DNA from: Escherichia coli
GTDB lineage: Bacteria; Pseudomonadota; Gammaproteobacteria; Enterobacterales; Enterobacteriaceae
Strand: one strand, 5' to 3'
DNA length: 64,000 bases
NCBI RefSeq assembly: GCF_044324785.1
Contig: NZ_CP172127.1
The number at the start of each line of letters is the position of its first letter. The stretch's first letter is position 1. The notes beneath the pieces were generated by a model, which saw only the letters and a list, made by a program, of their open reading frames with translations, was not told the DNA's origin and did no database searches. A program made the position numbers and the translations under genes. Positions 1,142 through 1,482 of the stretch are shown in pieces.

Positions 1142-1310
1142 TGGCCTTTAATGCGTAACACTATAGCCCCTTGTATTTTTCTTTGAAAGTTATCCTTCAA
1201 TAATATCGACAATTCGAAAAGAAAAGCATGGGCTAAAAATCGCAACGAAAATATCTTAATACATTGAAAAATAAATGAATAACTTAATATTTATGCAGAT
1301 GTACTATTGG

Positions 1311-1329
1311 TTTCACTTGCAAAGTGAAA
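1311..1329. promoter_or_regulatory. Candidate operator: palindrome TTTCACTT-gca-AAGTGAAA in the divergent promoter region
   Basis: Perfect 8-bp inverted repeat with 3-bp spacer read directly in the AT-rich regulator/aldolase intergenic region; function inferred. Confidence 0.3.
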
Positions 1330-1413
1330 AACAAATTAAGTTATTTTTTGTAAGTTATTTTGATGATATTCGACATGCATCACGCTTTTTGCCGCTTTTG
1401 CTGTGTTAGTTTG

Positions 1414-1428
1414 CTTTCAAAATGAAAG
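1414..1428. promoter_or_regulatory. Candidate operator: palindrome CTTTCA-aaa-TGAAAG sharing the TTTCA/TGAAA half-sites
   Basis: Second inverted repeat with the same half-site, ~55 bp upstream of the aldolase start; function inferred. Confidence 0.3.
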
Positions 1429-1482
1429 TGAAGATTCTGTTTCTTCATTTTGTAAGGCGAACGACAAATAACAGGAGCTGCG

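Follow-up and report, generated by a model that had tools for sequence, protein, structure and literature searches.

The tag cluster of E. coli, which serves D-tagatose utilisation, was described by Ha et al. (2022; PMC9720028), who also demonstrated the function of tagY. Its control region in E. coli Nissle 1917 has been modelled by Park et al. (2025; PMC12226905) as comprising the repressor TagR, the promoters Ptag and Preg, the operators tagO1 and tagO2, and a CRP site. A Ptag reporter was repressed near-completely with tagR on the plasmid, TagR overexpression repressing Ptag, whilst tagatose induced the promoter, free D-tagatose being taken as the inducer, and glucose repressed it (PMC12226905). 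The authors label their own operator model a working hypothesis; tagO1 and tagO2 are the only operators that their text names, and neither 'palindrom' nor 'inverted repeat' occurs in it. Work is under way to turn the tagR–Ptag cassette into a switch for tagatose-inducible expression in the probiotic E. coli Nissle 1917 (PMC12226905).

The window, meaning the whole 64 kb stretch of E. coli DNA that was analysed, carries the same locus near one end, with genes in the published order tagK–tagR and, divergently, tagYABCDE:

about 1–279, minus strand: tagK, PfkB sugar kinase gene, lying after tagR and truncated by the window start
311–1141, minus strand: tagR, DeoR/GlpR-family repressor gene, 276 aa, assigned from its open reading frame and the domains PF08220 (HTH_DeoR) and PF00455 (DeoRC)
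1483–2337, plus strand: tagY, class II tagatose-1,6-bisphosphate aldolase gene (PF01116 and TIGR01858 above cutoff), the first gene of tagYABCDE
after tagY, to about 7840: tagABC (ABC transporter), tagD (tagatose kinase) and tagE (epimerase-like)

The tagR and tagY assignments are supported by how RefSeq annotates the same locus in IAI39. Over 8 kb, identity with the window is 100% for E. coli N3 and 98.7% for IAI39. In TagR the helix-turn-helix domain spans residues 16–67 (52.9 bits against a cutoff of 21) and the DeoRC domain residues 88–219 (59.7 bits against 31.8). The nearest named NCBIfam family is the AgaR equivalog NF040755, which TagR matches at 105.5 bits, below the cutoff of 260, and a sequence search among solved structures returned no relative at E ≤ 0.001. 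From the start of tagR (1141, minus strand) to that of tagY (1483) lies a gap of 341 bp, and this gap is the published tag control region (PMC9720028, PMC12226905). Nissle 1917 has the same 341-bp gap and gene order, with 94% identity over 421 bp, so that tagO2, the CRP site and both promoters transfer directly to the window. The spacer allele of the window strain is rare, only 4 of 1422 genomes matching it at 99% identity or better.

Two palindromes in the tagR–tagY gap

The first-pass annotation had described the gap as an AT-rich region between a DeoR regulator and an aldolase operon, as borne out by its 31.7% G+C content and by the domains matched on either side. Within it, two palindromes with a common TTTCA/TGAAA half-site had been proposed as operators of the adjacent repressor, and both are present as perfect palindromes:

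1311–1329: palindrome 1, TTTCACTTgcaAAGTGAAA, arms of 8 nt and a spacer of 3 nt
1414–1428: palindrome 2, CTTTCAaaaTGAAAG, arms of 6 nt and a spacer of 3 nt

Base composition provides no case for them. The 341 bp were shuffled 5000 times with dinucleotide content preserved. A perfect palindrome with an arm length of 8 nt or more (spacer 0–7) arose in 12.7% of the shuffles, two or more with an arm length of 6 nt or more in half of them, and two separate palindromes with a common 5-mer in 13.7%. The suggestion that the palindromes are significant by composition was rejected, since some 13% of shuffles equal them, and the reality of the sites rests instead on conservation, which favours palindrome 2 strongly and palindrome 1 weakly. 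The proposed half-site proved a good guess, because AACTTTCA/TGAAAGTT ranks first in an unbiased count of 8-mers with the two strands collapsed, being present in 15/15 non-redundant orthologous intergenic regions. The conserved unit, by contrast, is not the palindromes as drawn but a 17–19-bp quasi-palindrome, AACTTTCAA-n-TTGAAAGTT, which comparative analysis identifies as the predicted TagR box.

The operator reading is partly supported; its general form, operators of the adjacent repressor built from TTTCA/TGAAA half-sites, agrees with every line of evidence. A motif search at orthologous loci recovers the box at the position of palindrome 2 in all of them, whilst palindrome 1, as a perfect 8-3-8 palindrome, is lineage-specific. 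Palindrome 2 lies in the predicted tagO1, nearly invariant in 17 orthologous loci, and for this site the operator idea is already in print (PMC12226905); palindrome 1 is the weakest of the candidates. Furthermore, with only two sites noted, three better-conserved boxes had been overlooked, namely O2 (1440–1458), U1 (1338–1356) and R (1173–1191).

Distribution and spacing of the predicted TagR box

A symmetric 19-mer matrix was trained on 14 regions from outside E. coli, with the window held out. In the held-out 64 kb it has exactly four matches of at least 8 bits, centred at 1182, 1347, 1421 and 1449, all of which fall within the 341-bp gap; four such matches were found in 0 of 3000 shuffles. 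Across 17 orthologous loci, 61 matches of at least 10 bits lie in 6.6 kb of intergenic DNA as against 4 in 105.7 kb of flanks, the former count being partly circular because the matrix was trained on those regions. The orthologues are related, and counts of sites amongst them are not independent observations. The motif and its specificity are established in the present analysis, as is the spacing described below. The elements of the gap are as follows:

1160–1187, minus strand: Preg, the tagR–tagK promoter, with a -35 element TTCAAA (1187–1182), a 16-nt spacer and a -10 element TATAGT (1165–1160)
1173–1191: box R, GTATTTTTCTTTGAAAGTT, centre 1182, overlapping the Preg -35 element
1308–1326 and 1314–1332: weak overlapping box registers in palindrome 1, centred at 1317 (position U2) and 1323
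1338–1356: box U1, AAGTTATTTTTTGTAAGTT, centred at 1347 (-72 relative to the Ptag start), directly upstream of the CRP site
1369–1384: predicted CRP site TTCGA-N6-TCACG (PMC12226905), centred at about -42.5 from the Ptag start, a class II position
1386–1419, plus strand: Ptag, with a -35 element TTTTTG (1386–1391), a -10 element TAGTTT (1407–1412) and the TG of an extended -10 (1404–1405)
1412–1430: box O1, TGCTTTCAAAATGAAAGTG, published as tagO1, centred at 1421, running from -7 to +12 and including palindrome 2
1440–1458: box O2, TTTCTTCATTTTGTAAGGC, published as tagO2, centred at 1449 (+31) within the 5' untranslated region

O1 is the top match in the 64 kb at 19.1 bits, followed by U1 (11.6 bits), O2 (10.4 bits) and R (9.2 bits). 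All four are kept in sequence and spacing across the 17 orthologous loci and are nearly invariant within E. coli. Over the eight E. coli alleles sampled for polymorphism, variable positions make up 0% of R, U1 and the CRP site and 5% of O1 and O2, as against 21% of the spacer; the stretch 1152–1191 is free of polymorphism. In an alignment of eight close orthologues, CTTWCAAARTGAAAGT in O1 is kept in 8/8, and TTTCTTCRTTTTGTAAG in O2, TCACGCTTTT (1380–1389) at the CRP site, and ACTATA and TTTTTCTTTGAAA in the Preg region are invariant, as are the TG and TA..TT positions of Ptag. More distant orthologues all have a box at the O1 position. An earlier, narrower matrix built from tagO1 and tagO2 of close relatives was dropped; it was over-fitted, with nearly invariant columns, and it missed U1, R and every site in distant orthologues. 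Matches of 5–7 bits at 37005–37019 and 40898–40922 were set aside as chance, falling at the start of rplM and in an unrelated AT-rich stretch. Sites for Cra/FruR, LacI-type repressors, NagC and FNR were rejected by eye against their consensus sequences, as half-site orientation or spacing did not fit.

The published operators and start sites can be placed on this map. Window positions 1414–1432, CTTTCAAAATGAAAGTGAA, agree with the published tagO1, CTTTCAAAATGAAAGTAAA, at 18/19 positions, palindrome 2 forming its initial 15 nt and overlapping the Ptag start. The reverse complement of 1438–1456, CTTACAAAATGAAGAAACA, agrees with tagO2, CTTACAAAATGAAGAAAGA, also at 18/19, confirming that tagO2 lies beside tagO1 on the opposite strand. 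By dRNA-seq, Ptag transcription begins at what is A1419 of the window, 64 nt ahead of the tagY ATG, and Preg transcription at about 1152, 11 nt ahead of the tagR ATG (PMC12226905). A plain sigma-70 consensus scan independently finds Preg with the same hexamers as in PMC12226905 and misses Ptag, as expected of a weak, activator-dependent promoter.

Neither R nor U1 appears in the published model. The right half of R, TTGAAAGT (1183–1190), is a perfect match to the consensus and its left half a poor one. Boxes lie 41–61 bp from the tagR ATG in 17/19 loci, and in Serratia, Yersinia and Sodalis the box at the R position reaches 17–20 bits. Since R overlaps the Preg -35 element, it is a candidate autoregulatory operator. 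Part of the conservation of R and U1 may nevertheless be promoter rather than operator conservation, R lying on this -35 element and U1 at a possible alpha-CTD or UP-type contact.

The most constant feature of the arrangement is the distance from U1 to O1, which is 72–74 bp (about 7.0 turns) in 17/18 compared tag loci, in which TagR identity goes as low as 51%; a paralogous locus with 38% identity has 73 bp. This spacing is kept despite sequence turnover between the sites; from U1 to the CRP site the sequence varies freely while its length is retained. O1 and O2 are 28–32 bp apart in 13 loci, and U2 and U1 24–32 bp apart in 11. The fixed U1–O1 distance suggests looping around the CRP site, although it could alternatively be a by-product of conserved CRP/-35/-10 geometry. 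The boxes follow tagR rather than its targets, as the same layout stands before a PfkB kinase and PTS operon in K. pneumoniae and Tatumella. Alignment of the long leaders of these PTS-type loci revealed no common element.

A candidate mechanism and its alternatives

The gap is probably a divergent control region in which a TagR oligomer acts on the whole set of boxes, combining a block at O1 and O2, a loop between U1 and O1, and autoregulation through R. We infer that TagR, as an oligomer, binds the quasi-palindromic boxes AACTTTCAA-n-TTGAAAGTT. O1 covers the Ptag start, O2 follows it in the leader at a distance of 28 bp, and occupancy of both would block initiation. U1 stands 74 bp, or seven helical turns, upstream of O1 and adjoins the class II CRP site; a TagR oligomer bridging U1 and O1 would form a short loop enclosing the CRP site and the -35 element. 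At the tagR promoter, TagR bound to R on the -35 element would exert weak autoregulation. A tagatose-derived inducer would then release TagR, allowing CRP–cAMP to activate the weak extended -10 promoter. Palindrome 1, 30 bp further upstream than U1, would represent a fifth position (U2), which is occupied by a strong box in several genera and by a weak, freely varying one in E. coli.

A more elaborate and distinctly tentative version envisages an evolutionarily fixed repressosome, in which the pairs U2–U1 and O1–O2 are bridged by a TagR oligomer and tagatose-1,6-bisphosphate, not free tagatose, is the common inducer. The sites of each pair would stand about 29 bp apart, centre to centre, with about 74 and 104 bp between pairs, and the seven-turn loop would trap the CRP site and the -35 element. 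This geometry would have persisted across the range from Escherichia to Budvicia and been redeployed without change before ABC-type and PTS-type uptake operons. Tagatose-1,6-bisphosphate is suggested as the inducer common to both because the ABC and PTS routes meet only there. DeoR-family precedent would favour tagatose-6-phosphate or tagatose-1,6-bisphosphate as effector.

There is an even chance that palindrome 1 is functionless in E. coli, a chance or decaying palindrome in AT-rich spacer that resembles a TagR box, with only O1, O2 and perhaps U1 and R of consequence. An equally good palindrome arises in 12.7% of shuffles, and the score of its better register (7.2 bits, the other having 5.9 in the same 19-mer matrix) is matched somewhere in 24% of them, the register itself being ambiguous between centres 1317 and 1323. 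Polymorphism in the region (5 of 25 positions, or 20%, in the eight E. coli alleles) is that of the adjacent spacer, the AF3 and AR0055 alleles disrupting the palindrome, and neither Enterobacter sp. ENT03 nor Superficieibacter keeps the left arm. A box at the U2 position, 24–32 bp upstream of U1, is present in 11/19 loci and absent or unscorable in the other 8, being missing in short-gap orthologues (Enterobacter sp. BIGb0383) and several distant ones. Against this, palindrome 1 lies 30 bp upstream of U1, an offset that carries a box in 10 other loci, and the chance of at least 7.2 bits in that 9-position slot is about 0.007, as estimated from the shuffle rate. Some of those U2 boxes are strong, as in Superficieibacter (16.9 bits), K. 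spallanzanii (16.7) and Yersinia (14.1). GGTTTCACTTGCAAAGT in palindrome 1 is near-identical to GGTTTCACTTGGAAAGT, the operator at the start site in the Yersinia/Serratia group, and with the narrower tagO1/tagO2 matrix palindrome 1 (14.0 bits at 1316–1330) is the sole match in the 64 kb besides tagO1 and tagO2. In E. coli palindrome 1 is at most an auxiliary site.

The published model, in which TagR works through O1 and O2 alone, dispenses with the loop and is unlikely to be the whole account. R would on that model be conserved as the Preg -35 element, which it overlaps exactly, and U1 as a site at which the alpha subunit of RNA polymerase, or CRP, makes contact upstream. U1 spans -81 to -63, and alpha-CTD commonly docks at such positions upstream of a class II CRP site; the left halves of E. 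coli R and U1 fit the box poorly, and promoter geometry could account for the fixed spacing. In distant orthologues, however, U1 and R are full boxes with two half-sites, which neither a -35 hexamer nor an A/T-rich UP element explains: Budvicia U1, ATCTTTCAAATTGAAAGTT, scores 21.9 bits, and Serratia and Yersinia R, TACTTTCTAATTGAAAGTA, 18–20 bits. The interval from U1 to the CRP site, free to change in sequence yet constant in length, also speaks for the wider set of operators.

O1 and O2 together form a 13-nt inverted repeat (1414–1426 and 1444–1456, 92% complementary), and its conservation could owe something, or most, to an RNA stem-loop with which the tagY mRNA would begin, influencing its stability or translation, instead of to protein binding at the DNA level. 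The Ptag transcript begins within the left arm, the segment 1408–1462 folds at -9.9 kcal/mol (z = -3.6 against shuffles), and a common A-to-G change in O2 (TTCGTTTTG) would preserve pairing as G-U. Complementarity, however, follows by construction whenever a quasi-palindromic box is present twice in opposite orientations, so that box symmetry explains the hairpin potential; further copies of the box (U1, U2 and R) lie ahead of the start site, where no RNA is made, and no double compensatory changes were seen. An Rfam search of the window region and four PTS-type loci brought no family near threshold. Such an RNA explanation is improbable. Binding by another regulator, either a GatR/AgaR-like DeoR paralogue or an AT-preferring nucleoid protein, is very improbable indeed, for although AgaR is the nearest named family, repeated CTTTCGTTT words with the same CTTTC core mark the AgaR-regulated promoters of K-12 and a 38%-identical Lelliottia paralogue has near-identical boxes, the boxes co-occur with tagR regardless of target operon, the remainder of the 64 kb has no further match of at least 8 bits, the TagR matrix finds 0 such matches in the K-12 aga region and weak ones near gat, and TagR overexpression silences the promoter (PMC12226905).

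Comparison with related repressor systems

The tag region is otherwise a conventional sugar-repressor control region within a system already known. Its interest lies in the candidate boxes, five as against the two published, and in their fixed phasing of about 74 bp around the CRP site; the model of PMC12226905 predicts tagO1 and tagO2 only, lacking palindrome 1, U1, U2 and R, and contains neither a general quasi-palindromic consensus nor a constant U1–O1 spacing. For a DeoR subfamily the analysis supplies a concrete and testable predicted operator consensus, and the full operator set would be useful for tighter or more graded versions of the switch and for minimising the cassette.

The AgaR/aga system of E. 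coli K-12 offers a parallel, one also drawn in PMC12226905. In both, a DeoR-family repressor is encoded divergently from an operon of tagatose-bisphosphate-aldolase type, with multiple operators, a CRP site and autoregulation, and the operator words have a CTTTC(R)TTT core in common with the TagR box. TagR is, however, only 31% identical to K-12 AgaR. The AgaR footprint consensus used in the comparison is the one that Ray and Larson reportedly gave in 2004. The aga sites look like direct CTTTCGTTTYATTTC repeats, whilst the TagR box is an inverted repeat. A scan of the K-12 aga region (8 kb) with the TagR matrix gave no match of at least 8 bits, and near gat the matches were only weak, so that equivalence of the AgaR/GatR operators with the TagR box was rejected, the CTTTC core alone being common to them.

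A number of parallels can be drawn with sugar repressors that form loops. DeoR (deo O1/O2/OE), GlpR, UlaR (ulaG/ulaA-F) and NagC (nagE–nagB) each employ several operators per control region, although NagC stands outside the DeoR family. The layout is similar also, with a divergent promoter pair, one operator on the start site, the other or others upstream in helical phase, and a CRP site between operators, which for NagC lies inside the loop. DeoR-type repressors are expected to be oligomeric; for TagR, by contrast with these systems, oligomeric state, cooperativity and looping are proposals. Classical repressor loops measure about 92–600 bp, and the proposed TagR loop, at about 74 bp, would be shorter.

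The tag control region and its two palindromes

Over its first 8 kb the window matches E. coli strain N3 at 100% identity, and IAI39 and CE10 at ~98.7%. This is the published D-tagatose utilisation locus, a segment at window 1-7840 between yhdT and accC carried by ~1420 of 5426 complete E. coli genomes. Growth on tagatose requires a six-gene cluster (Ha et al. 2022, PMC9720028), and the gene names tagK-tagR and tagYABCDE are those of Park et al. 2025 (PMC12226905). Downstream of the aldolase gene, tagY, lie genes for a sugar ABC transporter, followed by those for a PfkB kinase and an aldose-epimerase-like protein. 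The 341 bp separating tagR from tagY have a G+C content of 31.7%.

Features of the control region
311-1141, minus strand: tagR, DeoR-family gene (276 aa; PF08220 and PF00455)
1142-1482: gap between tagR and tagY
1311-1329: palindrome 1, TTTCACTTgcaAAGTGAAA
1414-1428: palindrome 2, CTTTCAaaaTGAAAG
1483-2337, plus strand: tagY, class II tagatose-bisphosphate-type aldolase gene

A sequence search of TagR against all PDB chains returned no relative at E <= 0.001, though the protein is clearly DeoR-family by Pfam. Both palindromes lie exactly where the first-pass annotation placed them. By composition alone the pair is unremarkable: when the gap was shuffled 5000 times with dinucleotides preserved, 12.7% of the shuffles produced a perfect palindrome with arms of 8 nt or more, and 13.7% two separate palindromes with a common 5-mer.

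By dRNA-seq, transcription from the tagY promoter, Ptag, starts 64 nt upstream of tagY (window A1419), and that from the tagR-tagK promoter, Preg, 11 nt upstream of tagR, at about window 1152 (PMC12226905). The same study predicted a CRP site, TTCGA-N6-TCACG (window 1369-1384), and two operators, tagO1 (CTTTCAAAATGAAAGTAAA) and, on the opposite strand, tagO2; it also reported silencing of a Ptag reporter by plasmid-borne tagR, a >1000-fold rise in tagYAB expression on tagatose, repression by glucose, and a roughly two-fold change in tagRK (PMC12226905). The published operators are each 18/19 identical to the window, at 1414-1432 (tagO1) and 1438-1456 (tagO2). Thus palindrome 2 is the core of the predicted tagO1. 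Palindrome 1 is not mentioned in PMC12226905, and a literature search found no follow-up to that paper.

The gene yhdT also follows tagK in Serratia aquatilis, GCA_000633355 and two metagenome-derived contigs (among loci L019-L022); where a contig is long enough, panF and prmA come next. From this shared order, the tag locus may be an old resident of the site that many E. coli have lost, and not a recent island.

A conserved box and its spacing

Seventeen orthologous loci were assembled by scanning species-representative genomes with TagR and by look-ups of more distant homologues. In the ABC type, tagK-tagR diverges from tagY and the ABC genes; this arrangement occurs in another Escherichia lineage, Superficieibacter, two Enterobacter species, Trabulsiella, Serratia aquatilis, Yersinia, Sodalis, Budvicia, L020 (a Logan contig) and L021 (GCA_000633355), with TagR identity ranging from 92% down to 51%. 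In the PTS type (L025, K. pneumoniae; L027, Tatumella), tagR-tagK lies opposite genes for a PfkB kinase and a PTS IIB-IIC-IIA-HPr fusion; TagR-TagK orthologues here are 56-57% identical, and the box architecture is the same. The Izhakiella and K. spallanzanii loci, without adjacent tagY, may be PTS type. Loci L009 (72%) and L010 (57%) have the same boxes without adjacent tagY. Since the boxes accompany tagR whatever the target operon, they are tied to TagR and not to the aldolase operon. In L025, L027, L009 and L010 the first called gene begins 172-308 nt downstream of box O1, and their long GC-rich leaders have no Rfam match and no obvious common element.

Alignment of the eight closest regions reveals footprints at the tagR promoter (ACTATA and TTTTTCTTTGAAA), upstream of the CRP site (TTTTGTAAGTTATTT), at an extended -10 element (TG-n-TA..TT), at tagO1 (CTTWCAAARTGAAAGT) and at tagO2 (TTTCTTCRTTTTGTAAG); TCACGCTTTT is also sharp. 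Under palindrome 1, just the four long regions can be aligned, and they differ from one another there. Conservation speaks strongly for palindrome 2 and weakly for palindrome 1.

In an unbiased strand-collapsed count over non-redundant regions, the top 8-mer, AACTTTCA/TGAAAGTT, occurs in 15/15 and the second, ACTTTCAA/TTGAAAGT, in 13/15. At the start-site position Budvicia has a perfect 8-1-8 palindrome, ACTTTCAATTTGAAAGT. A symmetric 19-mer matrix, iteratively refined and trained on 14 regions with the window excluded, has the consensus AACTTTCAAATTGAAAGTT. According to the matrix and 8-mer counts, the TTTCA/TGAAA half-sites first noticed are the core of a real conserved word whose full extent is a quasi-palindrome of 17-19 bp. 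Across all 64 kb the matrix yields exactly four matches of at least 8 bits, every one inside the gap.

Candidate TagR boxes in the window
1173-1191: R, centre 1182, 9.2 bits
1338-1356: U1, centre 1347, 11.6 bits
1412-1430: O1, centre 1421, 19.1 bits
1440-1458: O2, centre 1449, 10.4 bits

Four such matches occurred in 0/3000 shuffles of the gap. In the orthologous loci, matches scoring 10 bits or more number 61 within 6.6 kb of intergenic sequence, a partly circular count as the matrix was trained there, versus 4 in 105.7 kb of flanks, which is not circular.

Counted from the Ptag start, centres fall at +3 for O1, +31 for O2, -42.5 for the predicted CRP site, -72 for U1 and -102 (alternative register -96) for palindrome 1, which lies at the position of a further box, U2. 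R overlaps the Preg -35; the Preg hexamers, TTCAAA-16-TATAGT, were picked up independently. Of the 18 tag loci compared, 17 place U1 72-74 bp from O1; a Lelliottia locus with a regulator of only 38% identity has 73 bp. O2 lies 28-32 bp from O1 in 13 loci. The stretch from U1 to the CRP site keeps its length while its sequence differs freely among genera. The gap contains four or five copies of a specific, conserved box, arranged in a fixed geometry.

The Lelliottia nimipressuralis locus (L011, 2677-3000) encodes a DeoR paralogue of TagR; next to it are a PfkB gene and an aldolase gene of 70% identity. Its boxes are near-identical to TagR boxes (up to 18.8 bits), with spacings also of 73 bp and 32 bp; on this comparison, the predicted operator word and geometry have outlasted large regulator divergence.

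Ptag was published with -10 and -35 hexamers only (PMC12226905). A TG one base upstream of the -10 (TGnTAGTTT, 1404-1412) is invariant in 8 orthologues, which gives Ptag the look of an extended -10 promoter. A promoter-like match, TTGAAA-16-AATATT (1264-1291, plus strand), falls in the variable spacer; dRNA-seq reported no start site there (PMC12226905), and hence it probably arose by chance in AT-rich sequence.

Palindrome 1 and alternative readings

Palindrome 1 holds two weak overlapping registers (1308-1326, 7.2 bits; 1314-1332, 5.9 bits), and a match of at least 7.2 bits arises somewhere in 24% of gap shuffles. Eleven loci have a box at the U2 position, lying 24-32 bp upstream of U1, and the others have none. 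Strong copies occur in Superficieibacter (16.9 bits), K. spallanzanii (16.7), Yersinia (14.1) and Izhakiella (13.4); those of E. coli (7.2), the other Escherichia lineage (8.9) and K. pneumoniae (7.9) are weak. In a small sample of eight E. coli alleles across the identity range, polymorphic positions amount to 0% in the Preg core with R (1152-1191), U1 and the CRP site, 5% in O1 and in O2, 21% in the spacer (1192-1307) and 20% in the palindrome 1 segment (1308-1332). Some alleles break the palindrome (AF3, TTTCACTTACAAAGTAAAA; AR0055, GTTCAC...). With such figures palindrome 1 evolves like spacer in E. coli. The chances that it lacks function are about even. The original proposal that both palindromes are operators of the adjacent DeoR-family regulator is supported for palindrome 2, as already predicted in print, and is doubtful for palindrome 1.

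The central spacer (1192-1307) is hypervariable within E. coli. Over 421 bp, just 4/1422 genomes reach 99% identity to the window, so the N3-like window strain has a rare control-region allele, although the surrounding 8 kb match many strains at ~98.7%.

U1 and R may be kept solely as promoter elements, but distant genera have full two-half-site boxes at both positions. O1 and O2 together form a 13-nt inverted repeat (1414-1456) with the tagY mRNA start inside its left arm; the DNA folds at -9.9 kcal/mol (z = -3.6), and the tagY transcript could carry a 5'-terminal AU-rich stem-loop. The repeat can accordingly be read as a 5' hairpin; however, this potential follows from box symmetry, and the repeat matches no Rfam family. 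A different DeoR paralogue could occupy the boxes, but AgaR is just 31% identical to TagR, TagR scores 105 bits against the AgaR NCBIfam model (cutoff 260), and the K-12 aga region is without any TagR-matrix match of at least 8 bits.

A model for TagR control

TagR, if oligomeric like other DeoR-family repressors, would block initiation and escape by binding O1 and O2. From U1, seven helical turns upstream of O1 and beside the CRP site, a TagR oligomer might bridge the promoter or disturb CRP-dependent activation. Binding at R would give mild autoregulation, consistent with the roughly two-fold tagRK change, and U2 (palindrome 1) would be an auxiliary partner of U1, decaying in E. coli. DeoR-family precedent favours a phosphorylated intermediate as inducer. 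By analogy, this rather than tagatose itself may be the inducer of TagR; that would fit, as tagatose-1,6-bisphosphate would be the sole compound common to the ABC-type and PTS-type routes.

New here are a general consensus for the box, three candidate boxes not reported before (U1, U2 and R) and a conserved phasing of 73-74 bp. These additions are useful for engineering a tagatose switch and will not surprise a specialist: the system is a conventional, already described control region, combining a DeoR-family repressor, CRP and divergent promoters.
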